Positions 5,950 to 43,023 are shown, counted from the first letter of the stretch. The stretch is 64,000 bases of DNA from Candidatus Heimdallarchaeum aukensis (GCA_021513695.1 CP084166.1:2496001-2560000), one strand, 5' to 3'. Notes: generated from the letters alone by a model not told the origin. Numbers and translations: made by a program.

Positions 5950-6346
5950 ATGATTTATTCTTTTTGATGTTGAGTATATATTATTTACTACGTGTAATGC
6001 TTTACTGCTTATTCTTCCTACATTGATAACAGATAAATAAGTGGTTATGAGAGCAAATGATGTAGAATGATTAATCTTAATCGTAGTCTAGTGAGACTAA
6101 GGAAAATGTAGTAAAAAACTTAGGAAGAAGAACAGGTAGATAACAAAGTGGATAGTTCACAAAAACACAGATCTATTGGTAAAAAATGAACTGTTAGGAC
6201 ATAAAAGAAAAAAAGATAAATTAAGTAATCCATGATGACGAAATAAAACGGTGATATTAAACATATTTAAAAAATATAATTTAAAGATATACAATAATGA
6301 TTCGATTCATGAATTCTCAAGCAAGAATAATAGTAATATATAAAGC

Positions 6347-7109: not shown

Positions 7110-7408
7110 ATATAAAGCATTGGCAATAGTTTTATCAATAAATTTTACTGTACAATCAGCTGGAGGACAAAGTTGGGAAGCTAAAATGGTGACATAGATC
7201 ATATCGCTGTGGAAGATTGTTATTAACTCAATATTAAGCCTAATAGAAAGAAGAGATTCAATAGAAGTATAATTAAGATATCTCGTGATAATAATTAACT
7301 GTTTATTACGTACGAAGCAGTGTTACTTTATCAAAATTACAAATAAATTGACGCTTCAATATTAAATTCTTGACATTCGTGGAGAAAGATTGATTTATCA
7401 ATTGATTA

Positions 7409-17919: not shown

Positions 17920-17928
17920 TTTCCTTCC

Positions 17929-24259: not shown

Positions 24260-25267
24260 AAGCATGTCCAAAAATTCTTTTTCACCAACTATACAGTCCG
24301 AAGGAGTAAACGGTAGTTATAACAGAGGAGAGAACTGTACAAGGTAGAAAGGATGGTAGAGGGTAAGCGATCAAGTATCGGGGGAAGAGAGAGTTTGAGG
24401 AGACCAAAGACATGTTCAATACTACTACGATACTCGGGGTGGTGATTATGACGATAGAGACCAGGGTAGAGACGATGAGCTTGAACTATTGGTCCAAGAG
24501 GAGGAGGAGAGGGATAACGAGCATTACTTTTTGGGGGAATAACAGGAAAAAAGGAATGTTGGCTAAGAAGACCGACGATATTTTCTGTCCAGTAGGCACA
24601 GTCTCCATAGAATCGCAAGAAAGGTCTCAAGAGTGCAGAAGGAAGTTTCTGCCATAACAAACCGAAGACTTTACTATCGTGAGTGTTACTAGCAGAATGA
24701 GTAAGAGAGACTATAGCTCGAGAGGGTAAACCAACTATAAGGTGTATCTTCCAGAAAAGTTTAGTTTGGAGGTTTTCTTTAGTCCTCCTCTTGCCCACTT
24801 GAGAAAACGCCAAACAGAAGCTTGACGGATTTTAAACCCTGAACTATCCACCGCCATAGCTTTCAACCCTTTTTTCCTCACTATTTTCCTACCTAAATCT
24901 ATTATCCACCGCTCCAGCAACTCACTTTCTGTCGCTCTCCACACTGCATGAAAAGTAGATTTGGAAGGAATCTTCTTCATCCACCCCTCTTCTATCAAAA
25001 AAGCGCATAAAGACAACTTTTCCTCTAACTTCCTCCAAGCAATTCCTTCTATTCTAGCAATGATCGCTAAAGCCAGTATCACCCATCTTTCTGCTATTCT
25101 CTTTCTCCCTCTCTTGCTTTCTCTCGGTTCCTCTTTCACCAGTTTCTTAAGGAAAGGTTCATTAATGATTATGAATTCTCTTGCTTTGTGGGGGTCTATG
25201 ATCTGAAAGAAATTCATACTTCCGACATAAACCCCCACATTAATAAAAATTAATTTTTGGACATGCT
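24260..25267 (-). mobile_element. IS5/IS4-superfamily insertion sequence (~1.0 kb), visibly GC-richer than its flanks
   Basis: Perfect 16-bp IRs: AGCATGTCCAAAAATT (24261-24276) and AATTTTTGGACATGCT (25252-25267). Direct repeat TTAAGAAAA at 24251-24259 and 25268-25276. Confidence 0.8.
24289..25238 (-). CDS. DDE transposase split into two overlapping ORFs (24735-25238 and 24289-24813); the frameshift is either programmed or inactivating
   Basis: 'AMAVDSSGFK' (D) is in the first ORF. 'WKIHLIVG...THDSK', 'FYGDCAYWT' (D) and 'YRSSIEHVFGLLK' (E, K at +7) are in the second. The overlap contains 'CTAAAGAAAAC'. Confidence 0.7.
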
Positions 25268-25282
25268 TTAAGAAAATTTAAA

Positions 25283-26515
25283 TTAGTTTATTTTGTTTAT
25301 ATCTTCATTTTCTAAATAGTAATCTTGAATTATGTCAGAAAGATTGTAATTTTTAAAATATCCATTATTTAACTCTATTATGAATGGAATATATTTTCTT
25401 AATGGAGAGGTCTTTAAATACGTTTTTAACTGTTCTAACTTATCGCTAGTAAAGGGTAACATATTTTTTATTCGTTCAAATTCGTTTAAATAAACGTAAG
25501 CATTATGTAAAGCTCTTAAGTTAAAGCTTTTATCTAAATTCTCTCTTGTATGAGGATTCACTCCGCATTCGCATTTTAAAAATTCTTCTTCATGTTCTTC
25601 TTCGAGAACTTTTCTTGATTTATTTTTTCTAGGAAATAGAAATCTATCTGACAGTCCTGGTAATTGTATCGCGCCATGAGCAGCTTTTAATCTCCATCCA
25701 ACAGAATCAACAGAATCAGCTCCCGCTCCATAAATGAGATTCATTGTTGTAGTTCCTCCAATGCCAAATACATGAAGTTTACTTTTAGGAAACAATTTTT
25801 TGACTAATGCCGTTGCAGCAAAAACGAACATTGGGGCATTTAACCTTTTATCTTTTGAATGTGTTGGAATATTCTTTGAACCTTTGCTATATTTTAATAA
25901 TGGAACCATTGAACCTAATCCTATCCACTTTGGATACGAATTAGTATAATCTTTGTAAATCTCTAGGATTTTTTTAGAATAATTAATAATTTTTCTAAAT
26001 GAATGACCGTGAACGACAGGTATTAACGTTGTATCCAGATTTGCTTGTAACATCTTTTCTAAATTATCTAGTGTTTTTTTTTGCCTGTAATAGTTTTTGG
26101 AATATGTGGCTGTAGGATCTAAAGGATGATCTAAAACTACTGCATAATCCGGTGATGCCTTATTATACAATTTTATTAGATCTTCAACTTTAATTGAGAT
26201 ACCTTGTTTTTTTTGAAAAATAAAACCTCCACTATCCATCATAACATTAGAATTAATTTCTAAAAAATTTTTTAATCCTTTTTTCTCAATTTTTTCTCTA
26301 ATTTTTGGCTTGAAAATAATTTCTGCTCCATTTACTAAAATTCCTACATTTTTTGAAGTAAACTTGGCTATACTTTTGACTTTAGGTTGTGGATTTATAG
26401 GTGTTCCAAACCAAAAAAAAAGGTCATTTTTACCAGAGTTATTATCGAATATGTCACTTACTATCTGTTGCTCAGTTTTTTCATCATCAGAAGAAATTTT
26501 ACATGTAGTAATCAT
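25283..26515 (-). CDS. tRNA-guanine transglycosylase (TGT)-fold protein, DpdA/TgtA5-like candidate
   Basis: 'MMDSGGFIFQ' corresponds to the TGT DSGGFQ motif. 'LHVFGIGGTTTMNLIYGAGADSVDSVGWRLKAAHGAI' corresponds to the GxGxP...GxDxFD...A..G block carrying the second catalytic Asp. 'CECGVNPH' is only a partial Zn motif. No PUA-like C-terminus was seen. Confidence 0.65.
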   Translation of the reverse strand: MITTCKISSDDEKTEQQIVSDIFDNNSGKNDLFFWFGTPINPQPKVKSIAKFTSKNVGILVNGAEIIFKPKIREKIEKKGLKNFLEINSNVMMDSGGFIFQKKQGISIKVEDLIKLYNKASPDYAVVLDHPLDPTATYSKNYYRQKKTLDNLEKMLQANLDTTLIPVVHGHSFRKIINYSKKILEIYKDYTNSYPKWIGLGSMVPLLKYSKGSKNIPTHSKDKRLNAPMFVFAATALVKKLFPKSKLHVFGIGGTTTMNLIYGAGADSVDSVGWRLKAAHGAIQLPGLSDRFLFPRKNKSRKVLEEEHEEEFLKCECGVNPHTRENLDKSFNLRALHNAYVYLNEFERIKNMLPFTSDKLEQLKTYLKTSPLRKYIPFIIELNNGYFKNYNLSDIIQDYYLENEDINKIN

Positions 26516-27122: not shown

Positions 27123-29267
27123 ATGGTTCAACCGAAGAAGCTTTATAGTTTTTTAGATTCAGAATTAAAAACTTATCAGTTTCCAGAATTTCAAAGACCA
27201 TATGTATGGGGCCAAAATGAGATATATGATTTAATTGATACAGTAGTAAGGGGATATTCTGTTGGATTGATACTACTTTGGGAAGGAGATAGTAATGCTC
27301 TGAATTATTCTCTTCGAGATTGGGTATCTCCTCCAAGCAATAGTGATCGTTTAAGACTAAAGTACATTCTAGATGGACAACAAAGAATAAAAACACTTTC
27401 AAGAACCTTCGGAATTGATTTTTTAGTCAATAATGGTTTTATGTCAGAAGTAAAAACTGATTCAATTCCAAGAGCACTCTCCAAATACCCATATTTTATT
27501 TTTCCATCTCGATCAAATTTCTTAAATGTTACAAAAAACAAAAAAAATCGCTGGGTTAGTTTCGATATTTTCTTAGATTTAGCTAAAGTTGACTTAAGTA
27601 AAGAAAAATGGTATGAACGCATATCTCCTGATTGCTGGGTTTCTTTATTGGATATTATGAGGATGAATTGGAAGAAGGAAGAAATAGCAGAATTTAGCAT
27701 ATTAACTGAGAAAAAAGGTCCACTTAATAATTTAGAATTTTTTATTGTTGAGTATAAAAATGGTAAAATTGAAAGAGATAACCCAAACAACAAGTGGTAC
27801 AAAAAACAAGAGGATGGTGTTCAAGATACAAACTTAGTAAAACCAATTAGATTCATTTACATTAACTCATTAGAAAATATAGAAGATATAATTAAATATT
27901 TTAGATTATATTACCAGTTAAACGGAAGTATTCAAATTTCTCAAGATAAAAATTTTCTACATTTAGAACTTAGGCGAGAATTGATTTCACTACTAAAAAT
28001 AAAGCCAACAGATATAGATTTATTATTTCAAGAAACAGAATCAGCAGAACTTACACAGTTAACGCATTACTTTTCTAGGTTAAATAGAGCTGGTGTGTTA
28101 CTGGATGTAGTTGATTTGCTTATAGCAAAAATTTATGGTGAGAGAAATGAGCCGTTTCCTTTGCGCAATATCTTACAGAACACCTTTAGCGATGATACTC
28201 TTCGAAATTTTTTTAATCTAAAAGATGATGATGACCCAAGTACAAAATTTAAACTATTATTACAAGTAGTTTCTCTTTACTTTTATAACAAACTATCTGA
28301 TGATGCAATATTAAAAATAACGCAGCAAAATTTGTTAGATTTTGAGTTTGAGAAATTCTCGATGACATCTATTCCAATAAATAAGAAAGTATTAATACGT
28401 GAATCATGGAGAAAAACAATAGAATTTTTGAGAGAGAAACTTGCTATAAATTCTATTTCTAAATTAAGGTATGACCGGTTGTTTGTTATATTAATGGCAC
28501 TTAATTATCATGTTTATAAAGAAGAAATACTAAACAAAAGCTATAGAGACTTATTTGAGAATGAGTTTGATGAGATTCTCAAAGTTTGGATACTAAGGGA
28601 ATCTATATCGTTCAATCTAGCAACTGGAAGTAATAAACCTCCTGAAAGATATAAAACATTTATAAATAAGAGTATACCTTCTATAATACGATGCATTGAA
28701 AATGAAGAAGAAATAAGTAGAAAAGAAATATTAGATGAAATATTCGTTCCCACTTTGTCAGATGAAAACTTATCAGATAAGGAGTTTGGAAAAGCTCTAA
28801 TGAGTATTTTGTTGAAAGAAAATGGGATTTACGATTTCTACGATAAAACATTGTCAAAAAAGATCACAACTTGTTCTCAAGTTATTGAAGATACAATAGA
28901 GCTACATCATATTTTTCCAAAAAATATGGTTAATGATGCCAATTTAAAGAGGGTATTTGATATAGGATTAAACTTGACACCTTTAAAGAAAAAGACTAAT
29001 AGTGATAAACTTGGTAATAAACACCCATTTAAATATATTCAAGAAATGATGGGGGAGATTCAAGATGAAGCTATATTCAACGAAATAATGAACTCTCATT
29101 GGTTGCCAGAATTAGAATGGTGGCGTGATATTATGCAAAAATACGATTATCCAGATAATGAAGATGCAATAAAAAATGTTGAGAAAATAAAAGAGCAATT
29201 TGATTTATTTATTGAAAAAAGAAAAGAAATTGTTTTAGATAAAATCAAACCCCTCTTATACTTATAG
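27123..29267 (+). CDS. GmrSD-family type IV (modification-dependent) restriction enzyme: N-terminal DUF262, C-terminal DUF1524
   Basis: 'YQFPEFQRPYVWGQNEIYDLIDTVVRGYSVG' and 'DGQQRIKTL' indicate DUF262. C-terminal 'IELHHIFPKN...GLNLTPLKKKTNSDKLGNK' indicates the DUF1524 His-Me finger. Confidence 0.8.
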   Translation: MVQPKKLYSFLDSELKTYQFPEFQRPYVWGQNEIYDLIDTVVRGYSVGLILLWEGDSNALNYSLRDWVSPPSNSDRLRLKYILDGQQRIKTLSRTFGIDFLVNNGFMSEVKTDSIPRALSKYPYFIFPSRSNFLNVTKNKKNRWVSFDIFLDLAKVDLSKEKWYERISPDCWVSLLDIMRMNWKKEEIAEFSILTEKKGPLNNLEFFIVEYKNGKIERDNPNNKWYKKQEDGVQDTNLVKPIRFIYINSLENIEDIIKYFRLYYQLNGSIQISQDKNFLHLELRRELISLLKIKPTDIDLLFQETESAELTQLTHYFSRLNRAGVLLDVVDLLIAKIYGERNEPFPLRNILQNTFSDDTLRNFFNLKDDDDPSTKFKLLLQVVSLYFYNKLSDDAILKITQQNLLDFEFEKFSMTSIPINKKVLIRESWRKTIEFLREKLAINSISKLRYDRLFVILMALNYHVYKEEILNKSYRDLFENEFDEILKVWILRESISFNLATGSNKPPERYKTFINKSIPSIIRCIENEEEISRKEILDEIFVPTLSDENLSDKEFGKALMSILLKENGIYDFYDKTLSKKITTCSQVIEDTIELHHIFPKNMVNDANLKRVFDIGLNLTPLKKKTNSDKLGNKHPFKYIQEMMGEIQDEAIFNEIMNSHWLPELEWWRDIMQKYDYPDNEDAIKNVEKIKEQFDLFIEKRKEIVLDKIKPLLYL

Positions 29268-29699: not shown

Positions 29700-30275
29700 C
29701 TATGCAAAAACGCTGTTAGGCTGTTTTTTATGTTGTTCGTATACACTTGGTAGAGTCTTTAATAGCCATTGATATAATTTCAGGAATTCTTTTGCCTCTG
29801 TTTCAATATATTCTATTATTTCATCATATTTTTTATCTTTATATAAATCAAGTATATCCTCTCCTGTTTTCTTTTTTTTGGTAAAAGTATCTAATCTAGC
29901 ACCTTTAAATGATCCTTTATTTAGTATAAATAAGGTAGAACTAATATCTACGTGGGGATGAGTTAATAATTTCTCTAATTCAATATTTAGACCATATTTT
30001 TTAGCTCTTTTAGACAATACGATAAAATCATATTTTAAATTGGAACCAACAGGTGTAAAATTCCATTTATCTTTTATGTTTAATTTTCTAAGAAATTTTT
30101 TTATTATTTCTTCTTCAGAATTTTCCCAACTTTTAAGAATAGTTAAAGGCTCTCCACTTAATTTTTTTCCTGTTTGCTGCAATATTTTTTGGTATTGTAT
30201 AGTGATAATTTCATAATTGTAAGAATCTTCTTCTTTTTTACCATATGTTTCAATATCAAAATAATATGTTGTCAT
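29700..30275 (-). CDS. DEDD-type 3'-5' exonuclease (RNase H-like, PolB-exonuclease-like small protein)
   Basis: 'TYYFDIETYG' (Exo I, DxE) and 'GSNLKYDFIVL' (Exo II-like). Confidence 0.55.
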   Translation of the reverse strand: MTTYYFDIETYGKKEEDSYNYEIITIQYQKILQQTGKKLSGEPLTILKSWENSEEEIIKKFLRKLNIKDKWNFTPVGSNLKYDFIVLSKRAKKYGLNIELEKLLTHPHVDISSTLFILNKGSFKGARLDTFTKKKKTGEDILDLYKDKKYDEIIEYIETEAKEFLKLYQWLLKTLPSVYEQHKKQPNSVFA

Positions 30276-30499
30276 ATTATCATTATTTAATTTGAGAATA
30301 TTTAAATTAGTTGGTTTTAGTTGATAAACCTAGAAGAAAAAAGTAAATTTAACCTAAATTTAATAGAAAAGAAAGAATCAACAGAAGCAGAATTGGTTAG
30401 ATATAACTTATACTATAAAGGTTTGAATGTTTATTTTAAGTTAACACTGAAATTCAATTTTTCTTATTTCTCTTGTCTTTTATATTTTTCTTTATTTTT

Positions 30500-33400
30500 T
30501 CATTCTTCACAAGGCCCACCTACTATTTTTGAGTATGGGCAAGTTCTACATCTACTATACTCATCATCCTTATTTGGGTTTTTCACAAAGCCTTGTTCCA
30601 CATCAATTTTTATTCTGTTTTTAATAGCATCTTCAACTTGAGATTTGAAAGATTCAAGGTTATGATTTATTTTTACAACTTTGAATTGGGGATGTACAAA
30701 AACAATCAATGTTCCAATATCTTTGATATTTGGATAATTTTGTTTTAAAAGCCAAGCATATGTTGTTAGTTGATTCTCATACATTGTGTAGAGATCGCTG
30801 CTTTCATTTGGTGGATTTCCAGTTTTATAGTCAATGATTATCCATTTTTCTTCTTCAATTTTAAATAAAAGATCTATAGTTCCTGTTATTATAACGGGTT
30901 TATAATCATCGTAGGAAAATTTTGCTTGTAACTGATATTCTGTGAAAAAATCGGATGTTCTCTTATTGAAAAGATTTGAAATTGTTTTGTCTTTTAGATA
31001 AGAATTTATTATTTGTATAAGATGTTGTTTCGCATTATCAACTTGAATTTTACTAAGAATATTTAAAATAAGTTCAGAATCTATTTTTTCTTCTGAATTT
31101 ATTGCTTTATGAAATGATTCCATGAACAAATGGACTATATCTCCCCATTCTGCTGCTGAATTGATCCCCTTTGGAGGTGTTGTTCCTGGGGGTAAATGTT
31201 CCTCTCCAAATTTGCCAGATAAATAATAATTATCCACTTTATTTAAAACTGCATAGGCATATCTTCGGGGACAGAAAAGTAGATTGTAAAGTTCTTTTGC
31301 TGCAATAGATATGGGTACAAATTGTATATTTGCTAGTGTATTTAGTTTTTTAATTTTACTTCTTTTAACTTCTTTCTCATAATCTTTTTCTCTAAAAGAT
31401 AGAGGTTGATCTTCTTTAGGTGATGGCTTAATGATCTCTATTTTAATCTCTTCAACAATTTCTTTTTCTTCTAAACTATCGATAACTAGATTCTGTTCAT
31501 TCCAATTTAATGTTACATAAAAACAATCTCCTTCTGGGTTAAAATCTCTATTATTTAAAACTCCAAGTTTGTTTTGAATAGTATACATCCACCTAGTATA
31601 TTTATTTCCCTTAGGTTCTATAAGACCAAGATGAAAAATAAGATGATCTCTTGCTCTTGTAGTCGCAACATAAAAAAGGCGCCAAAATTCAGCAATATCT
31701 TTTTTGATAAATTGATTTAAAGGGTTGTTAAACTTAAAAACACCATTGTCTTCTCTTTTGTTACTAACCCAAAAGATTCCAGACGATAGATTACCAGGTA
31801 TTAATCTCTCTCCTGGGCCATTAATATCTTCTACTGTTTCTACATTAATATCAATTGGTTTAATAGCCACACCAATCTCTCTATCTAAAAATATTCTTTC
31901 CCTATAAGGGTCTCTTAATACATCTTTCACAAGCAGATCTGGAATAATTACTATTGGGAATTCAAGTCCTTTGCTTCTATGTATTGTCATTATTTTTACG
32001 CTATTTTTTGATTCGTAATCACCGATTTTTATGGTAGAATAATCTTGTTTTCCAGCATAAGCTCTATCTCGTAATACTTTTATTTTATAAACAAATTCAT
32101 TATACGAAAGTAGTTCTTCTTCTTCCCATTCTTTAATAATTTCAGTCAGTAATCTGAGATTTGCTAGAGTCTCAAAAGAACTTGAGGATGAAGAGAGAAA
32201 AACGATGTCTAATGCGCCATGATTAATTATTTTATCGATAAGGACTGCTTTTTCACCTTCTCTATCCCATCTTAGGTCATTTCTGAGTTTCAATAGCGCT
32301 TTTAATCTAATTAAATCTGTCTCCTTAATAATATTCTTTGAAGGTTGATTTTCTATTTCCATAAGTGCTTTTCTGAGCATAAAATTATGTGAAGCTAAAA
32401 ATCGAAGTGTTTCATCAGATATTGCAATTAAAGGAGAACGAAGTATATGTAATAATGCATATTTGTTGTGAGGGTTTGCAAACCAATCTAAAAAATCAAC
32501 AATTAAAGAAACTTCATGTTGTGCAAATAAAGAATTATCCAAAATCAGAGAATAGTTGATGCCGTATCTATCAAATAGCCTCAGAAAAGGATAGATCTTA
32601 CTTCTTCTTCTGAATAGTAAAGCAATATCTCCTGGCAAGGGAGATCTCTCTATTATTTCATCCTTTTCTTCTTCATAAATATTCAATCTGATTTTTTGGT
32701 CAAGAATATCCTTTATGCAAGAAACTATAGCTTCAGCATCTTTAGAATCCCAGTCAGCCCAATATATTGGCTTATTATTTGGTCCTTGGGTAAAAATGGT
32801 GTGGATGTTAGCAGTTTCTTTTTTATTTTTAGCGGTATTCCTTTTTGGAATTAACGGTACATAATCTACTTTTATTTTTCCAATTCTACCTGTAACATTA
32901 GAATCAAAAATCTCGCTGAATAGTGAATTAATGAGATAGATAATATCTGGTTGACTTCTAAAATTAGAAACCAATGCAACATATTCAGGATTCTTTATTT
33001 CAAAGGGCAAATCAATTTCATTTTTTGTTTTTGCATATTCTATAATTGAAGAGAATATTCCTGGCTCTGCTGATCTCCATTGATAAATTGACTGTTTAAC
33101 ATCTCCTATAATCATAATATTATTCTTTGTTCTAATTGTATCTTCATTTCGAATTAAATGTGAAATGATACGACACTGTACATAACTTGTATCTTGGAAC
33201 TCATCAATTAAAATATGATCAAACTTTAAGTTTAGACTTTTAACCCATGGACTTGTAGGATTTTTTTCTAAATATTCCCACAACATATATGCGATATCAA
33301 TATAGGTCAAATGTCCTGTTTTTTTAGTTTTTTCTGTATAAAGTTCGTCATATTTTTCTAGTAATAAGGTAAATTTATCGTATCTATCGCGCATCTCATA

Positions 33401-34222
33401 ATATATATGTTCAAGCGACTTTGACAATGTCAAAATTTCATCTTCATCTAGCTCATTCAATTTTTGTTCATTATTCTCGTTTGTAAGATTAATTATGATC
33501 TCTTTAGCTTGTTCTATTGAAAAAGGAGGAGTGTAATTAGAAAATAACATTGTAATTGTTTTTTTCATTTTCTTTGAGTAGTCTTCTCTAGTCCAACAAA
33601 ATTCTCTTGATTTTTGATGAACTTGACGTATCATGTCAAAAAGCCCAGGTAATCTAAAGTATCCAGTATACACTTCTTGGTATATTTCTTCCAACTCTTC
33701 AACGATATCTCTATATTTACTTTCTGTTTTAAGATAATCTTCAATCTCCTCAACAATTTCATCAGAATCCATTAAGAGAGCTACGTCAAATAAAGGGTAT
33801 AATGATATTTCAAGGCATATTTCTTGTAGCAACTTTAGAAGGTAAGAGTCAATGGTTTGAATAAATGACTCTGTTTCTAACCAACGGAAAAGATCATTGG
33901 ATATGGAAATGGTTTCATCCTTTCGAATCTCATTTAATCGTGACTTTAATTTAATTTTAAGCTGTCGAGATGCTTCTCTACCAAAAGATAGTACCAGTAT
34001 TCTTTCGAAAGGATTAATTTTTTCGTTGTTACGATGTTCTACTAAAGTAATATTGCTCAAAATTTCAATTAATGTGGTTGTTTTTCCTGTACCAGCTCCT
34101 GCATCAACAACCACTCGCCCTGAACCAAAAAAATATTTTTCCACAACTCTTTTCTGATCTTCAGTCAACTTTGATTTTTCTATTAATTCTTTTACTATTT
34201 TCAGTGTTGAGTCATTCATCAT
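30500..34222 (-). CDS. AddA/AdnB-like SF1 (UvrD-family) helicase fused to a C-terminal Cas4/RecB-type PD-(D/E)xK nuclease with Cys cluster
   Basis: Helicase motifs: 'DAGAGTGKTT', 'LIDEFQDTS', 'GDVKQSIYQWRSA', 'VSNFRSQ', 'TIHRSKGLEFP', 'FYVATTRARDHL'. Nuclease motifs: 'CPRRYAY', 'GTIDLLF...WIIIDYKTG', 'QLTTY', 'CRTCPYSKIVGGPC'. Confidence 0.85.
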   Translation of the reverse strand: MMNDSTLKIVKELIEKSKLTEDQKRVVEKYFFGSGRVVVDAGAGTGKTTTLIEILSNITLVEHRNNEKINPFERILVLSFGREASRQLKIKLKSRLNEIRKDETISISNDLFRWLETESFIQTIDSYLLKLLQEICLEISLYPLFDVALLMDSDEIVEEIEDYLKTESKYRDIVEELEEIYQEVYTGYFRLPGLFDMIRQVHQKSREFCWTREDYSKKMKKTITMLFSNYTPPFSIEQAKEIIINLTNENNEQKLNELDEDEILTLSKSLEHIYYEMRDRYDKFTLLLEKYDELYTEKTKKTGHLTYIDIAYMLWEYLEKNPTSPWVKSLNLKFDHILIDEFQDTSYVQCRIISHLIRNEDTIRTKNNIMIIGDVKQSIYQWRSAEPGIFSSIIEYAKTKNEIDLPFEIKNPEYVALVSNFRSQPDIIYLINSLFSEIFDSNVTGRIGKIKVDYVPLIPKRNTAKNKKETANIHTIFTQGPNNKPIYWADWDSKDAEAIVSCIKDILDQKIRLNIYEEEKDEIIERSPLPGDIALLFRRRSKIYPFLRLFDRYGINYSLILDNSLFAQHEVSLIVDFLDWFANPHNKYALLHILRSPLIAISDETLRFLASHNFMLRKALMEIENQPSKNIIKETDLIRLKALLKLRNDLRWDREGEKAVLIDKIINHGALDIVFLSSSSSSFETLANLRLLTEIIKEWEEEELLSYNEFVYKIKVLRDRAYAGKQDYSTIKIGDYESKNSVKIMTIHRSKGLEFPIVIIPDLLVKDVLRDPYRERIFLDREIGVAIKPIDINVETVEDINGPGERLIPGNLSSGIFWVSNKREDNGVFKFNNPLNQFIKKDIAEFWRLFYVATTRARDHLIFHLGLIEPKGNKYTRWMYTIQNKLGVLNNRDFNPEGDCFYVTLNWNEQNLVIDSLEEKEIVEEIKIEIIKPSPKEDQPLSFREKDYEKEVKRSKIKKLNTLANIQFVPISIAAKELYNLLFCPRRYAYAVLNKVDNYYLSGKFGEEHLPPGTTPPKGINSAAEWGDIVHLFMESFHKAINSEEKIDSELILNILSKIQVDNAKQHLIQIINSYLKDKTISNLFNKRTSDFFTEYQLQAKFSYDDYKPVIITGTIDLLFKIEEEKWIIIDYKTGNPPNESSDLYTMYENQLTTYAWLLKQNYPNIKDIGTLIVFVHPQFKVVKINHNLESFKSQVEDAIKNRIKIDVEQGFVKNPNKDDEYSRCRTCPYSKIVGGPCEE

Positions 34223-37200
34223 CTACATCTCCATTTTCTTCTGTAGGTAGGGTTAATATTGGTGAGTAACCACTGCAGAGCCTTCTGTAGTCACACAAAA
34301 CACACTCTGTATTTATGCGTTTTGAGGCATCAAAAATTCCTTTTTTAATATCCGATAATCTTTCATTTAGACTAGAAATCACATCGTCCATTTTTTGAGT
34401 AAAATCCCTTTTTTTTGTCCAAGAACCAATAAATATGGGATTAGAAAGGATGTCTTCCGGATAAATCTCTGAAACTTTATAATAACTGTATTTGGTTTTA
34501 GAGTACTGTTTGTATATTCCTCTACGTTTTCCAGAAAATGGTTCAATAAACTCTATGCCAAAAAAAGGTTTTCCCATTTTCGTTTCATATAAATATTGAG
34601 TAATCGCTATTCTAACATCATTTATTCTTCCACTTAAAAATTTGTTAAAATTACTTCCTTCAAAATTATCCGACAATGAGTACGATGTATTGTTGTAAAA
34701 AACAGGTAAATAAAATGTGTTTTTAGTTCCATCAGGTTTTGTGATTGTTATACTATCCATCCTATGTCTTGGAAAAAGAATAACACAACCATTATCTAAA
34801 ATTATATCTGTTTCATTTTCTACTTCCCAATTTCTGGTTATTTTATATTCAATTTCATTTATAACTATTTTTTCTTCATTTTCAAAAATAGGTTTGTACT
34901 TTTTACAATAATAATCTGAATATCGTTCAAAAATATTTTCTATTTTATCTTCAAAATCTATTCCTTTTATCTCCATTCGTTCAGGAACTTCTTGTTGAAT
35001 GAAGTTTAATAATTTATTTTTTTCTTCATCTTTCAGATATATTTTACGTAGAAGCTTTGGATAGAAACCAAATCGGTAATGTAATCTTTTTGTTGTGTAA
35101 AAAGGAATCTCACGTGAAATCTCATGACCTTTATACCAATTGAAATAAAATTGGTAAAAATAATATCTTAGTGGGCAATCATAAATAAGAGATAGTTCAT
35201 GGATTCTATAAGGATCACCAACTATTTTTTCAAAAATATCATTTGATAAATAAAATTGATTAACCTTTGCTTCAATTCTATGTGGAGGATTTAGGTATCT
35301 TTCAATTCTGTCATTTATTTCTTTTTCTTGAATATCCATATTTGCATAGGCGTAAATGTCAAGAAATTCTTCTTCTGTTATTTGTGGAAAAATATTATTA
35401 TTTGCTCTATGGAGAATCCAGTTATATAATTGTAGTATCTCCTTTTCAGAAAGTAATGCCAAGTTTTGTTGAAAATCGCCGGTGCTAGTTAAAATATTGA
35501 AGATCTCTGTAGGATAAATCTTTCTCTCTTTTTTCTTTATTTCTTTTACATTATCAGTAAAAGAAGACCAATCTAGTCTTCTACCCTCTCTGTCAAGGTA
35601 AGTTCGCGATAAAAATAAAGTGTCTTTAGAAGAAAATAATACCTGTTCAAAGAAGTCTAACTCAGAAGCATAATCATTTTCGGGGCTTAAATTGTAAATA
35701 TATCCATAAGAGGGATCTTTTTTTACTAAATGAGATTTCTTTCTTTCTAGTTCTTTTTTGATTTCTAGTGGTAGAAAGATTGAATCAGGACATTTTCTCG
35801 GAAATTCGTCGGTTTGAAAACCAAGAAGGAAAATATACTCCGCATCTCTAAAGTAAACGTTTGCAGCATCAATAAAACAGACAGTATTTTGATCAAAATT
35901 TTGAATACCAAAAGTTTCTCTACCTATTAATTCACCAAGTGCTTGAGAAACATATTTCCATTTAATTATATCAGCTTCATTTTTATTTAGTAAATAATCC
36001 AAATAAGCAGATAGGTTTGAAACTTTATTTTTCAATCTATTAGCTTGATATGTAGGGTGAGTTTGAAAAAACTGTTGTCTTTTGTTTTCTATTCCTGGTC
36101 CTTCAATTGAATGAGTTATAACTTTTCTAATATTTCGAATAAAGAAATAAATAAGAGAATTTATTATTCTGACAAAATCACTAGGTTTATTGGATGAAAT
36201 CTCTAATAGCTCTTTAATATAGTTCAAATATTCAATTATTATTTTTCTCAACCATGAAGGGAGTTCTGCTATAGCTTTTTTCCAATCTTCAAAAGATAAT
36301 TTTTCAGTATTTGACTGCTGTATAAGCTTTTTCTCTAAAAAATCTAAACTTTCTTCCAAACTTAAAAAAATTTTATCATCTAGAGGATACTTGGCTGAAA
36401 GACTCCTTTTAGGCAGACATAATCCTAATCTTAAGGGATTCATTATGTCTGCATAACTGATATTTTTCTCTTCTTCTATTTTAACAAGTAAATCAACTGT
36501 AGCTTTTAAGAAGCGATAAGCTGTAGAGTATGCTAAAGGATAACGCGTTTCTATAGAATAGGGAATTCCTGCAGTTTCAAAAATATTTTTGATGTAAGTT
36601 TTATATTTGCCGATATTTCTCGCTAAAACAAGTATCTCATGCGGTTGAACTTTTTCCAATAAGATTAATTTCCTTATTTGTTGAGAGATCTCTTTTATTT
36701 CCATGTAAGGGGAAGGTGCCGAAATAAAATTAATTTTTGTTTCATCAAATCTGTAGTCTTTCATATTTTTCTTTAAAAACAGTTTCCAATGAGAATATTC
36801 TGAAGATTGCTCTGAAAGTTTTTCAATAAGTGAAATATATTCATAATCAATGTTAATATATTTTAATCTTTGAATAAGCTGATCTTTTGTTCCTTTACCA
36901 ACAAAAATATGAACATTGAGCTCTGGAAACTTGTTGGCTATCGAAGTTATCAGATGTAAAGTAGGCGAGTCATAAACTGTTATTCCCATAACGTAAATGT
37001 TCTTTAAATTAGGATACAAATTTAACCATTTACTCTCTTCTCCGTTGTCAATTACTTGATAGGTTTCAGTAATTAAATGGCTCCTAGATAAGAAGTTATC
37101 ATTTTTTATCAGTTTCAATTCTTTATTCAGAAGATTGTGAATTATTTGAAAAACTTCATAAATTTCAACTGCTCTTATCTTCCAAAATGGAGATTCAATT

Positions 37201-37667
37201 TTGTTACACATTTCTAGTAATTTATCATGATCTAAACCACTGTTAGAACTTCTAAAATATTCATCTAATTCTTGATTAAAAATAGTTAGCACGTCTGGAT
37301 CTTTAAAGTCAATCTGTTGAAAAAATCTTTTTGTACTTATTGAAACTTTGATATCTCCATTTTTTATTTGTTCAACTATGTCTAAAATCAACTGCTTCCT
37401 AACAGATTCTGATAAAATTGTTGGTTCTTTATTCGTGTAGGTTTTTAGGATTTTTATGGCTAAATCTTCAAAAGTTGTTAATTCTACCTTGTTAGTAAAA
37501 TCTTTTACATTAAGAGCTAATTTTCTTCTTAGATTCTGCAAGACTATAAAACCAGGTAAAATACATAATGATTCTATCTTTTGAGAGGGAGTAGGACTTT
37601 CTAATTCTTTTAATCTTACAAATAAATATTTTTCAGGATTACCATAAAGAATAGATAATTTACCCAT
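34212..37667 (-). CDS. AddB-like subunit: degenerate (Walker-A-less) helicase-like region plus C-terminal nuclease-like domain with Cys cluster
   Basis: N-terminus 'LSILYGNPEKY' occupies the position where AddB has GxGKT. 'CPLRYYFYQF' and terminal 'CVLCDYRRLC' mark the nuclease-like domain. Size and the 11-nt overlap with the AddA-like gene support pairing. A catalytic D/ExK is not clearly recognisable. Confidence 0.6.
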   Translation of the reverse strand: MGKLSILYGNPEKYLFVRLKELESPTPSQKIESLCILPGFIVLQNLRRKLALNVKDFTNKVELTTFEDLAIKILKTYTNKEPTILSESVRKQLILDIVEQIKNGDIKVSISTKRFFQQIDFKDPDVLTIFNQELDEYFRSSNSGLDHDKLLEMCNKIESPFWKIRAVEIYEVFQIIHNLLNKELKLIKNDNFLSRSHLITETYQVIDNGEESKWLNLYPNLKNIYVMGITVYDSPTLHLITSIANKFPELNVHIFVGKGTKDQLIQRLKYINIDYEYISLIEKLSEQSSEYSHWKLFLKKNMKDYRFDETKINFISAPSPYMEIKEISQQIRKLILLEKVQPHEILVLARNIGKYKTYIKNIFETAGIPYSIETRYPLAYSTAYRFLKATVDLLVKIEEEKNISYADIMNPLRLGLCLPKRSLSAKYPLDDKIFLSLEESLDFLEKKLIQQSNTEKLSFEDWKKAIAELPSWLRKIIIEYLNYIKELLEISSNKPSDFVRIINSLIYFFIRNIRKVITHSIEGPGIENKRQQFFQTHPTYQANRLKNKVSNLSAYLDYLLNKNEADIIKWKYVSQALGELIGRETFGIQNFDQNTVCFIDAANVYFRDAEYIFLLGFQTDEFPRKCPDSIFLPLEIKKELERKKSHLVKKDPSYGYIYNLSPENDYASELDFFEQVLFSSKDTLFLSRTYLDREGRRLDWSSFTDNVKEIKKKERKIYPTEIFNILTSTGDFQQNLALLSEKEILQLYNWILHRANNNIFPQITEEEFLDIYAYANMDIQEKEINDRIERYLNPPHRIEAKVNQFYLSNDIFEKIVGDPYRIHELSLIYDCPLRYYFYQFYFNWYKGHEISREIPFYTTKRLHYRFGFYPKLLRKIYLKDEEKNKLLNFIQQEVPERMEIKGIDFEDKIENIFERYSDYYCKKYKPIFENEEKIVINEIEYKITRNWEVENETDIILDNGCVILFPRHRMDSITITKPDGTKNTFYLPVFYNNTSYSLSDNFEGSNFNKFLSGRINDVRIAITQYLYETKMGKPFFGIEFIEPFSGKRRGIYKQYSKTKYSYYKVSEIYPEDILSNPIFIGSWTKKRDFTQKMDDVISSLNERLSDIKKGIFDASKRINTECVLCDYRRLCSGYSPILTLPTEENGDVDDE

Positions 37668-38530
37668 GTTTAACTCATCTTCAATAAATTTTCTAAATTT
37701 TTAAATATTATTGGTAGTTATTATAAAGATTTAAAGAAATTTTTAAAAAAAGATTTGGTTTTAATGATGAGTATATGATTATCAAACTCTTGCTTTTTGT
37801 TTTATTCCTAAAATATTTATCCTTTATGTACAATTTAGTTTCATACATCGATTAAAAATTTTAAAACTAGTTACGAAAAAGGTTATCTTTATTACTTTTT
37901 AGAAAAAACTTTTATCTAAAATTTCTACAATGTCTAAGTGATAATTTGTTGATATTTGTAGTTTCTTTTTTTACTTTAGGTTCTCATGTATTTCAAACAA
38001 ATCTTTCAAAGTACAAGAATAGACATAAATTGTAAATCCTGGGAAGGCAACTATTATTTAATCTTGTGATTTTCAATTTCAAATATTTCAATTATTATGT
38101 ATTGTATTCTAACTGAAACAAATAACCACTATTGTTTAACAATTCTTTATATTACACATAAATAAAATACTTTTATATAGTTTATAAAAAATAAGTATCA
38201 TACTTTTTATGATTTTTTATGTTTATAAAATCAAAATGTGATTCCTCCTACAGTTCTGTGATAGATTCCTTTGTTTAGTGACAGTCACTTCTGAAATCTA
38301 TATTATCAACTTATTTAGGGTACAATTATAAACAATTTAAAAAGAATGAAAAAACTATAGACGGTGAATTTAGCATGTATAGTGAAGTAATCACTGACAT
38401 AAACATAATATTTTATAATTTTACAACATAATATTAACATGATTTAATCGTTTTTTATTAGTGTTTCCTTTATTTTGAGATTATAACAATTAGCACAACG
38501 TTTTAAAATTTTTTTATTACTATATTATTA

Positions 38531-38665
38531 ATGAAGCAAAAAGCGAAATTATTTTTTGAGAAGTTAAGAGATATATTTATAGGTGCCCAAGTTGAAGGAA
38601 ACTCTGGCTTTATCAAATTCATGAGTTGGAGTTTTGTAAAATAAAATTTTCAATTTGGTGGTAAG
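38531..38665 (+). pseudogene. internally deleted relic of a type III mod gene (5' ~110 nt fused to the last ~30 nt) immediately upstream of res
   Basis: The 37-codon ORF 'MKQKAKLFFEKLRDIFIGAQVEGNSGFIKFMSWSFVK' aligns to Mod aa 9-40 ('KEEQFFKQLKDIFCGARVEGDSGFINLMRIKS'). The 14 nt AATTTGGTGGTAAG at 38652-38665 are identical to the 3' end of mod (45562-45575). Confidence 0.6.
38657..38662 (+). promoter_or_regulatory. GGTGGT Shine-Dalgarno-like element 3 nt upstream of the res TTG start
   Basis: 'tttGGTGGTaagTTGagt'. The same sequence is the Trp-Trp-stop end of mod, so it may simply be a remnant of coding sequence. Confidence 0.25.
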
Positions 38666-41659
38666 TTGAGTGAGCGATTACCTTTAATTTATCAAGATCT
38701 GGTCAATGAAATTTCAATTGATGCAATACCAATTGAATGGTTTTCTAAAATTAATTTAAAAGAGTTTTCAAACAAAATTTCATTATATGATTATCAACAG
38801 CAAGCTTTAGAAAGTGCAATAAAATTTCTATTTTATTATTATAGTTTATTGCATAAATATTGCATCTCAGAACGTGAAAAACACAACATTGAACGAAAAA
38901 GCAAATTATACACTGAATTAGTGAATAGAGAAAAGACAATTGTAGAATCATTATTTATTGATAATAGAAAAAACAGAGCTCTTTTTTATCAGCTTAAACA
39001 GTATTATGGCGTAATACCTACAATGAACTACGAGAAAATATCCTTTAGCAACTTTGTTAACCGAATGAGTTTCTGGATGGCAACAGGTTCTGGTAAAACT
39101 ATTGTATTAATCAAGATCATTGAATTATTGTATGAACTTGGTCAAGCGAAATTAATACCTAACCATGATATACTAATTTTAACTCAAAGAGATGATCTTA
39201 TTGAACAGATTAGAGCTCATATTAGACAATTTAACGAAAAAAGAACTAAGAAGATAAAACTATGGAATTTGAGAAACTTTGATGCTGTAAAAAATGGACG
39301 AGTTTTAGTCTTTAGAGATGAAATTAATGTCTTTATATATAAATCTGATTTAATCTCAAATCAAACAAAAGAGAAACTGTTAAATTTTGAGGACATCGAA
39401 AACAATGGCAATTGGTATGTTTTGTTAGATGAAGCTCATAAAGGAGATAAAGAAGATTCAAAAAGGCAACAATATTATTCTGTCCTTTCGAGAAATGGGT
39501 TTCTGTTTAATTTTTCAGCAACTTTTACCGACCCTTGGGATATCATCACCACAACTTTTAATTTTAATTTGCAAAAATTTATTGAATCAGGGTATGGGAA
39601 GAATATTTTTCTTTCTGAGAAAGAGTTTATCTCATTTGAAAAAGAAAGGGATTTTAATGAGGAGAGTAAACGCAAAATTGTATTGCAAACACTCATTGTT
39701 CTAGCAGCTATAAAAAAGATTAGGAAAAAAATTGAACAAAGTTTAGGTGACAATTTTTACCATTCTCCACTACTTTTAGGCCTTGTGAATACAGTGAGTA
39801 CCAAAGATTCTGATCTTGAATTATTTTTTAAGGAGCTAGCAGCAATTGCTAAAGGAGAGATTAATGAAGAAGAAGTAACTATAGCCAAGCAAGATATATT
39901 AAAAGAAATTAAAAATACTCCAGGTTATTTTTTCGGAAAAAGTTCTATTAAATATAATGAGAATTTATTGGATAATATTAACTATAGTTGCATTCTTCAG
40001 GAGGTTTTTAACACTTCTACTCCAGGAAATATTGAGGTACTGAAAATTCCTCAAAACAAGCAAGAATTAATTTTTAAGCTTAAGACTTCTGATCTTCCAT
40101 TTGCCCTCCTAAAAATTGGTGATATCACAAGATGGCTAAGAGAAAAATTGACCAACTACGAAGTCTATGAATCCCATGACAATGAAAGTTATTTCAAAAA
40201 TATTTCTAACTCTGATTTCATTAATATATTAATGGGGTCAAGAGCTTTTTATGAAGGTTGGGATTCCAATAGACCAAATGTTATAACATTTATTAATATT
40301 GGAAAAGCAGATGCAAAAAAATATGTTATTCAAGCAATAGGAAGAGGAATAAGGATTGAGCCTGTAAAAGGAAAACGGAAAAGAATTAGTTTTCTTAAAG
40401 CTGAAATTGATCCTAGTATAGAAAAACAAATATATAATAAGTTAGCACCAGAGGATATAGCTCTAATTGAAACACTCTTCGTTTTTGGGACAAAAAAGAA
40501 ACACATTGCAGATGTTCTAGGTGCATTAAAAAGAGAAAAAATAACTGTTGGTAAATCCCTAGAATTAGCCAAAAATGATATGGCGATAGATTTACCTCTT
40601 TACATTCCAGTTTACAAGAGAAGAGCAACTTCGACAGAAGTTGAAAAGCTTCCAAGTTTTAAAGGAAATCCAAAGTTATTGAAAAAATATATTGAATGGT
40701 TAGATGATGATAAAGTACTTTTTGCCCTTCTTTCAGAAAATCAAAAAATTGAACCAAAAATAATTCAACAAATAAAAGAATACGTTGAAAAAGGAAAATT
40801 TGACATAAATGAAGATATGAACATAAATAATCAATTGAACAAATTAGTACGACATTTGACCCTAGTTCAAAGCGATTTTGAAACTTTAAAACCACTAGAA
40901 GAAGAGATAATTCATTTTAAAAATATTAGGCTTTTGTTGGATGATGAAGAAATAAGTAAAATAAAAGAAATTGTGAAAAAAGTTCAAAGATACAAATGTT
41001 CACAAAATGAAGAAATGAAATTGGATAAACTTTTAGAAAACAAAAAAATTACATTGAATGAATATAAGACAAAACTTAAACAGTTAGCTGAATATAAACA
41101 GGAAATAGAATATAGAAATATACTCTTTAAACACATGTTGCAACACTACTACAACCCAATGATTATCTCAAAAGAAGAGCACTTTACTCTAATAAAACAT
41201 ATTATCACCGTTCCAAGTGAAAAAAAATTCATAGAGAAGTTATCTAAATTTATTTCTGATGGTAAAAGTTTTTTTGATGAAGATTTTGATTGGTGGATAT
41301 TCAGCAAGTTAAATGAGCATTTAGATGAAGTCTATATACCCTATTATGATCCTGAACATGGGCGAATAAGAAAATTTATTCCCGACTTTATTTTTTGGTT
41401 TAAAAAGAATAAGAACTACGATATTGTCTTTGTTGATCCAAAAGGAACTGCACATATAAATTATGTAAATAAGATATTAGGTTACAAGGTTTTATTTGAA
41501 GAAAATAATATGGTACGGGTTTTCAACTTTAATGGTCTTAACGTCAGAATATATCTGCTACTTTATACTAGTGATAAAAATAAAGTACGTGCCTATTCAG
41601 AATACTGGATTGATAGTATTAGTGATATCAAAAAAGTTCTAGTGAGAAATGGAGAGTAG
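38666..41659 (+). CDS. res: type III restriction enzyme Res subunit (SF2 helicase + C-terminal PD-(D/E)xK endonuclease)
   Basis: 'MATGSGKTIV', 'VLLDEAHKG', 'FNFSATF' and 'QAIGRGIRI'. C-terminal 'IPDFIFWF...IVFVDPKGT'. TTG start. Overlaps the following mod reading frame by 11 nt. Confidence 0.85.
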   Translation: MSERLPLIYQDLVNEISIDAIPIEWFSKINLKEFSNKISLYDYQQQALESAIKFLFYYYSLLHKYCISEREKHNIERKSKLYTELVNREKTIVESLFIDNRKNRALFYQLKQYYGVIPTMNYEKISFSNFVNRMSFWMATGSGKTIVLIKIIELLYELGQAKLIPNHDILILTQRDDLIEQIRAHIRQFNEKRTKKIKLWNLRNFDAVKNGRVLVFRDEINVFIYKSDLISNQTKEKLLNFEDIENNGNWYVLLDEAHKGDKEDSKRQQYYSVLSRNGFLFNFSATFTDPWDIITTTFNFNLQKFIESGYGKNIFLSEKEFISFEKERDFNEESKRKIVLQTLIVLAAIKKIRKKIEQSLGDNFYHSPLLLGLVNTVSTKDSDLELFFKELAAIAKGEINEEEVTIAKQDILKEIKNTPGYFFGKSSIKYNENLLDNINYSCILQEVFNTSTPGNIEVLKIPQNKQELIFKLKTSDLPFALLKIGDITRWLREKLTNYEVYESHDNESYFKNISNSDFINILMGSRAFYEGWDSNRPNVITFINIGKADAKKYVIQAIGRGIRIEPVKGKRKRISFLKAEIDPSIEKQIYNKLAPEDIALIETLFVFGTKKKHIADVLGALKREKITVGKSLELAKNDMAIDLPLYIPVYKRRATSTEVEKLPSFKGNPKLLKKYIEWLDDDKVLFALLSENQKIEPKIIQQIKEYVEKGKFDINEDMNINNQLNKLVRHLTLVQSDFETLKPLEEEIIHFKNIRLLLDDEEISKIKEIVKKVQRYKCSQNEEMKLDKLLENKKITLNEYKTKLKQLAEYKQEIEYRNILFKHMLQHYYNPMIISKEEHFTLIKHIITVPSEKKFIEKLSKFISDGKSFFDEDFDWWIFSKLNEHLDEVYIPYYDPEHGRIRKFIPDFIFWFKKNKNYDIVFVDPKGTAHINYVNKILGYKVLFEENNMVRVFNFNGLNVRIYLLLYTSDKNKVRAYSEYWIDSISDIKKVLVRNGE

Positions 41660-42479
41660 TTATATGAACACAAAAGAAGAGCAATTTTTCAAACAATTAA
41701 AGGATATATTTTGTGGAGCTAGAGTTGAAGGTGATTCTGGTTTTATAAACTTAATGAGAATTAAATCTAGTTACTTTAATGCTCTATTTAACGAATTAAA
41801 AAAGGAAATTAATATTAAAATTGCAAATGAACCTTCTTTTAAAGAAGAGCTCTTTGATAAACTCTACACCTTCTTTAAAACTTATTTTTCAGATACTGGT
41901 AGTGTTTATTTTAACTATACTCCTTTAAAATCCAAAGTATATGAAAAAGTTTATACCAACAATGAAGACACAATGCTTTTTTGGAAAACTCATATGCTTC
42001 ATTATGTTAAAACAGCAAGAATATGGAATAATTTGAAAATAAGTTTAGAAATAAATAACAAAGATTACATCTTTTTATTTGATATATCTGATCTCAACAA
42101 ACAAGATTCTGCTGAAAAAAATGATGTTATTTATATTTTAGATAGCATCACTGATAACATTGTGAAGTTTAATGTTGTTTACTCAAAAAGAGGGAAAACT
42201 ACGAAATTAACAGAAATTGTAAAAAAACTATATAAAAACAACATTCCTATTGGAGTAGATCAATTATCTGGCCTTTTTATGATATTTGAAAAACAGAATG
42301 AGGTTGATTATTTCATTAATAAAAACGCCAACATGTTTCTAAAGGAACAGTTTAATATGTGGCTCAAACAATATGTTCTAGATGTAGATAGTATTTTTAA
42401 TAGACGGCGATTAAATCAATTGAAAATATTGCATGATATAGCTTATAAAATTATAGATTTCACAGGAAATAGAATATAG
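41649..42479 (+). pseudogene. truncated mod copy (N-terminal 271 aa + 5 junction-encoded codons) created by the duplication
   Basis: Identical to the 43013-45574 product up to 'YKIIDF', then 'TGNRI*' read from res-derived sequence. Confidence 0.8.
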
Positions 42480-42498
42480 AAATATACTCTTTAAACAC

Positions 42499-43023
42499 AT
42501 GTTGCAACACTACTACAACCCAATGATTATCTCAAAAGAAGAGCACTTTACTCTAATAAAACATATTATCACCGTTCCAAGTGAAAAAAAATTCATAGAG
42601 AAGTTATCTAAATTTATTTCTGATGGTAAAAGTTTTTTTGATGAAGATTTTGATTGGTGGATATTCAGCAAGTTAAATGAGCATTTAGATGAAGTCTATA
42701 TACCCTATTATGATCCTGAACATGGGCGAATAAGAAAATTTATTCCCGACTTTATTTTTTGGTTTAAAAAGAATAAGAACTACGATATTGTCTTTGTTGA
42801 TCCAAAAGGAACTGCACATATAAATTATGTAAATAAGATATTAGGTTACAAGGTTTTATTTGAAGAAAATAATATGGTACGGGTTTTCAACTTTAATGGT
42901 CTTAACGTCAGAATATATCTGCTACTTTATACTAGTGATAAAAATAAAGTACGTGCCTATTCAGAATACTGGATTGATAGTATTAGTGATATCAAAAAAG
43001 TTCTAGTGAGAAATGGAGAGTAG
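42499..43023 (+). pseudogene. duplicated res 3' fragment (C-terminal endonuclease region, 174 codons from an internal Met)
   Basis: Identical to the last 174 aa of Res. Whether it is expressed cannot be judged from the sequence. Confidence 0.75.

Follow-up and report, generated by a model that had tools for sequence, protein, structure and literature searches.

Do archaea possess helicase-nucleases of the AddAB type and, if so, what are these for? The common view is that archaea have no RecBCD or AddAB and that end resection is carried out by Mre11-Rad50-HerA-NurA (bioRxiv 10.64898/2026.05.08.723854). The question is raised by a 64,000-nucleotide stretch of DNA (hereafter "the window"; GCA_021513695.1, CP084166.1:2496001-2560000) from Candidatus Heimdallarchaeum aukensis, an Asgard archaeon with a circularised genome (Wu et al. 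2022, PMC8813620). A preliminary description of the window, made from its sequence alone and blind to its source, reported an AddAB- or AdnAB-like gene pair and a DEDD exonuclease in an archaeal-looking genome. The genome is indeed archaeal, and open reading frame (ORF) calls and alignments confirmed the three ORFs, the overlap between two of them and every motif named. All three genes are intact and lie on the minus strand. An AddB-like gene (34212-37667, 1151 residues) is followed by an AddA-like gene (30500-34222, 1240 residues), the end of the one overlapping the start of the other by 11 nucleotides (34212-34222), which is consistent with translational coupling; the exonuclease gene (29700-30275, 191 residues) comes next. 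As set out below, the first two genes form a conserved two-gene module found in archaea and very probably encode an AddAB-type complex, whereas the exonuclease is an independent gene.

Pfam recognizes UvrD-helicase (5e-36), UvrD_C (2e-27) and PDDEXK_1 (2.9e-22) domains in the AddA-like protein. Its top curated model is NCBIfam addA_Gpos, at 265.8 bits, below the equivalog cut-off of 707.65; addA_alphas (190.6 bits, cut-off 860.75) and the RecB model (~190 bits) likewise fall far below their cut-offs. The closest relative in the PDB is Bacillus subtilis AddA (3u44_A, 3.6e-26), then RecB and PcrA, with AdnB a weak match. In an alignment of 25 sequences the superfamily 1A (SF1A) helicase motifs are whole (Walker A GxGKT, DExx and motifs III-VI), the invariant residues including G44, G46, K47, T48, D340, E341, Q343 and R856. 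The RecB-family nuclease residues D1117, D1131-x-K1133 and Q1151...Y1155 are invariant in the same alignment, and the strings 'IIIDYKTG' and 'QLTTY' were confirmed. A UvrD-family motor with an intact Cas4/RecB nuclease, as first described, is thus what the gene encodes. The protein also has a Cas4-type set of four cysteines (C984 in 'CPRRYAY', C1225, C1228 and C1238), common to most members of the archaeal clade defined below and missing in the nearest bacterial AddA proteins (Planctomycetes), and NCBIfam cas4 matches its C-terminus (5.5e-8). PADLOC gave only generic GajB matches to the UvrD core and assigned no system. PHROGs gave only generic helicase and exonuclease matches for the AddA-like protein and none for the AddB-like protein or the exonuclease, and a tblastn search of a phage collection found nothing.

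The AddB-like protein is far more diverged. A Pfam scan found no family in it, and NCBIfam addB_Gpos matched at 1e-9 and 36.7 bits, far under the equivalog cut-off of 903.7. When the family profile was compared with the PDB, B. subtilis AddB (3u44_B) matched at 9e-11 and RecC at 0.012, in the 2A-domain region. An AlphaFold2 model built from 31 homologues (pLDDT 85, pTM 0.72) had as its top Foldseek match B. subtilis AddB (4cej_B) over the full length (E 1e-29, TM 0.57); the AddB chains 4cej_B and 3u4q_B together gave E 1e-29 to 6e-28 and TM 0.54-0.59 over ~1260-1290 columns. RecC (E 3e-18) and then AdnA (E 5e-16) were the runners-up. Identity to AddB is only ~13%. Six weak hits of the family profile were sampled; all matched the AddB model best, and one of the six was above the AddB equivalog cut-off. 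The profile thus reaches true bacterial AddB proteins, and the relationship is real, though very remote. Taken with those for AddA, these profile and fold matches bear out the view that this archaeal genome encodes a true helicase-nuclease of the AddAB type.

Are the two catalytic sites of this partner still there? The preliminary description held that it had lost Walker A, kept its cysteines and showed no clear (D/E)xK, and the family alignment agrees on each point. An N-terminal P-loop ([AG]x4GK[ST]) is present in none of the 31 family members; in the window protein the N-terminus reads 'ILYGNPEKY', and a Walker-B-like aspartate (D233) persists. Four cysteines, C831 ('CPLRYYF') and C1122, C1125 and C1131 ('CVLCDYRRLC'), are invariant across the 31 sequences. 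In AddB these four cysteines hold an iron-sulphur (Fe-S) 'staple'; the spacing in the AddB-like protein is that of the AddB/Cas4 staple, and an Fe-S cluster is predicted. No (D/E)xK is conserved between C831 and C1122 in the family alignment. Profile-profile alignment with the nuclease domain of the AddA-like protein, of low confidence, sets 'HRMD971' on motif II and 'PVFYN' on the motif III string 'IIDYK', which would replace the aspartate with phenylalanine and the lysine with asparagine; this placement agrees with the beta-strands predicted in the AlphaFold2 model. The main subgroup of the family still conserves E938, R969 and D971. Judged from alignment and model, the AddB-like protein is predicted to be RecC-like in function, dead as motor and as nuclease, and AddB-like in fold and in its Fe-S cysteines. 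Many family members (P0183, P0187, P0190, P0192 and the protein of Halobacterium sp. NMX12-1, for example, from the Halobacterium-containing subgroup) have an additional stretch rich in cysteine (CxxxCxxCx5-7C), inserted after the motif-III-like strand and before the C-terminal cysteine triad. The insertion, which may be a second metal site, is missing from the window protein.

How does the pair compare with known systems? Like B. subtilis AddAB (3u44, 4cej), it consists of two adjacent genes for subunits of ~1150-1240 residues, one with an SF1A motor and a RecB-type nuclease, the other with the AddB fold over its full length and a four-cysteine staple flanking a nuclease-like domain. AddB of the B. 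subtilis type has an N-terminal Walker A, and a 'VDYK' nuclease motif occurs in Bacteroides fragilis and B. subtilis AddB; the window partner, at its very low identity to AddB, has neither Walker A nor (D/E)xK. Further differences from B. subtilis AddAB are that both window proteins lie far below the equivalog cut-offs, that the AddA-like protein carries Cas4-type cysteines of its own, that the gene order of the window type is B then A, and that all named hosts are archaeal. The resemblance to RecC (1w36, 8b1t) is that of a helicase-like scaffold, motor-dead and nuclease-dead, that goes with a RecB/AddA-type partner holding the single active nuclease. RecC, however, is without the four Fe-S cysteines that the AddB-like protein keeps, and a RecD-like second motor of superfamily 1B is not encoded at the locus, where the flanks are the exonuclease, a GmrSD-type gene and a type III Res gene. 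Mycobacterial AdnAB (6ppj, 7sjr) likewise has two UvrD-like/RecB-nuclease-like subunits, AdnA being the third-best structural match. AdnAB retains ATPase and nuclease motifs in each of its subunits, whereas the AddB-like protein has lost the P-loop and (D/E)xK. The GajB of Gabija has a UvrD-type core and gives the best PADLOC matches of the AddA-like protein, but these cover the helicase core only. GajB is without a C-terminal RecB nuclease, and PADLOC found no match to GajA (an OLD-family ATPase-nuclease) among the neighbours of the pair in the window. Compared by description only, the published UvrD-Cas4 fusions (PMC5704561) resemble the AddA-like protein in joining a UvrD helicase to a four-cysteine Cas4-like nuclease and in lying beside type III Mod/Res genes; unlike it, they are stand-alone genes for which no AddB-like partner is mentioned. 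The one carrier of the pair that was looked up, Halostagnicola larsenii XH-48, has no Cas4-family entry in the supplementary tree and table of that paper.

The pair itself is constant. In 12 of 12 distinct loci the AddA-like gene comes directly after the AddB-like one. Eleven of these loci, each with both genes on one strand, were found by tblastn: the window, a metagenome-assembled genome (MAG) of an uncultured archaeon (L002), metagenomic groups (L005, L006-8 and L015), Halostagnicola larsenii (L014), Saliphagus (L017), Halalkalirubrum (L018), Haloarcula amylolytica (L019), L020 and L021. The twelfth is a 93.9-kb plasmid of Natribaculum luteum (NZ_CP095399.1). The junctions are tight outside the window too, with overlaps of 1 nucleotide (L014, L020) or 4 nucleotides (L022) and gaps of 5 nucleotides (L002, L021). 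The pair is therefore a conserved two-gene module. In L015 the AddB-like gene is in two ORFs (423 and 679 residues; 6704-10001), a split that may mean a frameshift, a pseudogene or misassembly. In two loci the gene for a superfamily 2 DEAD/ResIII helicase overlaps the 3' end of the AddA-like gene (L015, 13579-14826; L021, 16907-19345); these may be a three-gene variant. In L021 there is also a prokaryotic Argonaute (pAgo, Piwi) gene ~2 kb upstream of the pair (5500-8169).

The preliminary description proposed that the pair had been acquired horizontally or is a defence-dedicated end-degrading machine, the contrary case being vertical inheritance throughout the lineage. A word-indexed search of 5.8 billion proteins returned four AddB-like homologues and none from the sister Heimdallarchaeum species, from which we infer absence there; the pair is accessory and sporadic, not lineage-wide. 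An exhaustive HMMER search with the AddB-like profile (1.84 billion sequences) gave 48 representatives at E<1e-30 and 967 at E<1e-3, with a long weak tail. The named AddB-like family members are from Thorarchaeota and Halobacterium, and one of them already has the IMG label 'helicase/nuclease subunit B'. The AddA-like protein has ~77 strong relatives (350-980 bits, 29-42% identity), nearly all matching over 96-100% of its length. Every named one is archaeal: Halostagnicola, Haloarcula, Halobacterium, Natronorarus, Haloprofundus, Halorussus and Thorarchaeota. There is a step in score between this clade, at 350 bits or more, and the nearest bacterial AddA proteins, mostly from Planctomycetes, at 195 bits or less. 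In a neighbour-joining tree of 121 retrieved sequences (a set without B. subtilis AddA, E. coli RecB or AdnB) the 78-member AddA-like clade is monophyletic in 50 of 50 bootstraps, and the mean distance is 2.18 between groups against 1.14 within the clade. A scan of species-representative genomes found four loci, all archaeal, a number that is an undercount because a single peptide pattern from eight sequences was used. Overall, the pair occurs on chromosomes and plasmids of Halobacteria, in Thorarchaeota and in other archaeal MAGs.

A monophyletic archaeal clade so far from bacterial AddA means that the pair is not a recent bacterial import and that any bacterial origin would be old. The idea of a simple transfer from bacteria is therefore not supported: on present sequences the AddA-like clade is apparently a deep, archaeal lineage whose spread now looks intra-archaeal, by way of plasmids and islands. 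That AddAB had passed 'even into the archaea' was an earlier suggestion by Cromie (2009, cited in PMC2887965).

Where the pair lies gives a hint of its role. As the preliminary description had it, the window is a defence island, and a long one: besides the pair it includes a PLD nuclease, a ResIII-NERD-HNH group, a Swt1-type HEPN protein, HerA-NurA with a 1224-residue AAA protein, a DpdA-like TGT, GmrSD, a type III restriction-modification (R-M) block, DUF3800, AAA_14, HepT and several transposases. A divergent, type III-like block (38666-45574, plus strand; Pfam ResIII 3.6e-18, N6_N4_Mtase 5e-35) begins beyond an AT-rich spacer of ~1 kb (37668-38665) that separates the AddB-like start from the restriction gene and is presumably the promoter site for both. 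The block is composed of a Res helicase (997 residues), ORFs of 276 and 174 residues and a Mod methylase (853 residues), and may cooperate functionally with the pair. The two small ORFs sit between Res and Mod (41649-43023, plus strand) and match no Pfam family. At other loci the neighbours of the pair are integrases, a PIN protein and an SRA-HNH enzyme (L014); Mrr, SNF2, HsdM and PLD (L015); Mrr (L005); DndB and Csa3-type regulators (L020); pAgo, an SMC-like ATPase and an AlwI R-M system (L021); an adjacent N6_N4 methylase (L019); and a ResIII helicase (L017). Six of the 12 loci (the window, L014, L019, L020, L021 and L022) have a DNA methyltransferase gene no more than 10 kb from the pair. 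These methyltransferase neighbours echo an association described by Hudaiberdiev et al. (2017, PMC5704561), who report that UvrD-Cas4 fusions of bacteria and mesophilic archaea commonly adjoin type III Mod/Res genes.

What, then, might the pair do? We consider it probable that this is an accessory, single-nuclease end-degrading heterodimer of the AddAB type, acting mainly against foreign DNA. The AddB-like and AddA-like proteins would form an AddAB-like heterodimer that is loaded onto the ends of duplex DNA. There the AddB-like subunit, as scaffold, would bind the end through its Fe-S domain and split the strands, the single 3'-5' motor of the AddA-like subunit would drive translocation of the complex, and the AddA-like nuclease, as sole cutter, would degrade the DNA. 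One motor with one nuclease would be a design between AddAB (one motor, two nucleases) and RecB-RecC. The complex would serve not in core repair of the chromosome but in destroying foreign DNA that is linear or cut by restriction enzymes, a task that RecBCD and AddAB also perform in bacteria. Foreign-DNA destruction is the likeliest role because the pair is sporadic, is carried on plasmids and in defence islands, and is often beside methyltransferases or ResIII proteins. A one-nuclease enzyme, moreover, would make no obvious 3' recombination tail unless it switched strands as RecB does, which favours defence over core repair. On the narrower matter of whether defence is the primary role, we lean only slightly towards yes. 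Several points weigh against this interpretation. The alignment of 'PVFYN' with motif III has an hhalign probability of only 10.9%, and E938, R969 and D971 may form a non-canonical active site in the AddB-like protein, though the canonical catalytic lysine is gone. We infer the heterodimer only from gene coupling and homology. The L002 pair has no obvious defence neighbours; methyltransferases are common in defence islands, so that 6 of 12 is a raw count and the island context is suggestive. Finally, bacterial AddAB does both repair and defence, and the two roles are not exclusive.

Could the pair instead be an ordinary recombinational-repair AddAB that resects breaks for RadA loading, as a back-up to Mre11-Rad50-HerA-NurA, and is perhaps regulated by Chi? 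Its nearest characterised relatives, B. subtilis AddA and AddB, are repair enzymes, and L002, where clear defence genes are missing, has a RecQ-like (RQC) gene nearby. We nevertheless think this unlikely: a repair enzyme would not be expected to be so sporadic, on plasmids and in defence islands and undetected in the sister species (where absence is presumed), and the AddB-like protein lacks the motif of the nuclease by which AddAB cleaves the 5' strand and leaves the 3' tail. Another possibility is that the pair is a dedicated accessory of a neighbouring R-M module that degrades DNA after restriction cleavage or in some other way works solely with that system, much as might be supposed for the UvrD-Cas4 fusions beside type III Mod/Res (PMC5704561). 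The divergent Res/Mod block 1 kb from the pair fits this, as do the methyltransferases or ResIII/DEAD helicases that adjoin the pair in L015, L017, L019, L021 and L022. The type of neighbour varies from locus to locus, however (type III, N6_N4 alone, D12, type I HsdM), and in some loci it lies several kb off, while L002 has none, the sole invariant being the AddB-like/AddA-like pair itself; a dedicated R-M accessory accordingly seems quite improbable.

There is also the downstream exonuclease to account for. The gene is where it was first described, on the same strand, adjacent to the AddA-like gene and separated from it by 224 nucleotides, and its product begins 'MTTYYFDIET'. In the family alignment D7 and E9 are invariant, D110, Y156 and E160 are at least 90% conserved and the acidic ExoII residue is kept, so that motifs ExoI (DxE), ExoII and ExoIII (Y156-x3-E160, Yx3E) are all present. 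The profile matches the exonuclease domain of Pfu polymerase (3.4e-4), Pfam DNA_pol_B_exo2 scores 15.9 bits (under its cut-off of 24), and an AlphaFold2 model (pLDDT 91) has TgoT and KOD polymerases as Foldseek matches (TMq ~0.62); the fold is that of the exonuclease domains of the Tgo, KOD and Pfu polymerases. The 191-residue protein is thus predicted to be a stand-alone DEDDy 3'-5' exonuclease of the family-B polymerase proofreading type. Might the three genes be one operon, with the exonuclease as the missing second nuclease? They share a strand, and the arrangement is kept in a 96-98% identical metagenomic relative (P0001, P0063, P0007; one 19,906-bp contig). This relative and the window are the only places where the exonuclease goes with the pair. 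None of the five exonuclease loci examined has the pair, and tblastn found no exonuclease downstream of the pair in any other locus where downstream DNA is present. The homologues stand alone, in a CBASS-like SMODS context (Heimdallarchaeaceae), beside a type ISP enzyme, or in a housekeeping context in Dehalococcoidales. Besides, 3'-5' DEDDy chemistry would be no substitute for the 5'-strand nuclease of AddB. This distribution largely refutes a triad, which we regard as highly improbable; the exonuclease is an independent island gene and not a conserved component of the pair. A 366-residue gene downstream of the L002 pair was considered as an exonuclease relative and rejected (BLASTP E 0.01 over 24 residues, no Pfam family). 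Homologues 59-67% identical to the exonuclease adjoin SMODS/ThiF/JAB (CBASS-like) genes and a type ISP enzyme (L009 and L010, both Heimdallarchaeaceae; L011), and exonucleases of this family may themselves be residents of defence islands in Heimdallarchaeia.

If an end-degrading heterodimer is what the pair makes, it is a testable exception to a textbook generalisation, present in cultivable haloarchaea, and introduces no new principle. A search of the literature found no description of the pair family, of a silent Fe-S scaffold or of the two cysteine sets. In the Natribaculum luteum plasmid the RefSeq label of the AddB-like protein is 'hypothetical protein', which indicates that the pair is unrecognised in archaeal annotation. 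More speculatively, and with considerable doubt, archaea might own an old AddAB-type lineage with a single motor, a single Cas4-type Fe-S nuclease and a silent Fe-S scaffold of the AddB/RecC kind, which would move on plasmids and defence islands together with R-M genes and fill the 'RecBCD role' in immunity. Such an enzyme would clear restriction-cut or injected linear DNA and perhaps feed CRISPR adaptation or pAgo. Were this true, it would disprove the standard assertion that no RecBCD/AddAB equivalent exists in archaea. An archaeal-only AddAB-like family that includes tractable haloarchaea would give a handle on how archaea dispose of linear foreign DNA, and on whether an end-processing nuclease feeds archaeal restriction, Argonaute and CRISPR adaptation as in bacteria. 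For the evolution of AddB/RecC scaffolds, the AddB-like family would be an intermediate state, with Fe-S cysteines kept and the nuclease and ATP sites lost.

The rest of the window holds further defence-type genes. The accessory HerA-NurA set of the preliminary description is present (HerA, 533 residues, and NurA, 374 residues; 16318-19053, minus strand). Its HerA matches the PADLOC defence-type HerA model PDLC04105 (189 bits), and neither Mre11 nor Rad50 lies beside the two genes in the window; the set looks like a separate defence-type module and not a canonical repair operon. The block extends on the same strand to 24176, with a 248-residue protein of no known function, the 1224-residue AAA-domain protein and another such protein of 252 residues. 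A lone TGT/DpdA-like gene (25283-26515, minus strand; Pfam TGT 3e-15; PADLOC DpdA 2e-8) with no other dpd genes nearby adjoins a DDE transposase split into two ORFs (24289-25238, minus strand). Convergent with the exonuclease gene is one for a 714-residue protein (27123-29267, plus strand) in which only the GmrSD N-terminal (DUF262) domain was found; its top PADLOC match is the candidate system PDC-M55C.

Mobile elements occur among these genes. An insertion sequence (IS) with an rve integrase is present as two inverted copies of 750 nucleotides, 93% complementary (6360-7109 and 14611-15360). They flank a 7.5-kb block with a ResIII helicase, a 273-residue protein of no known function, a NERD protein and an HNH protein, an arrangement that resembles a composite transposon with a defence cassette. 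When the window was scanned with Rfam and for tRNA genes, neither rRNA nor tRNA nor any other RNA family turned up. The G+C content of the window is ~28% overall; between ~52000 and 60000 it rises from ~0.27 to 0.34-0.37, and the genes there encode a solute-binding protein, a subtilase, an S41 peptidase and an ABC transporter; the defence island probably has its edge here.

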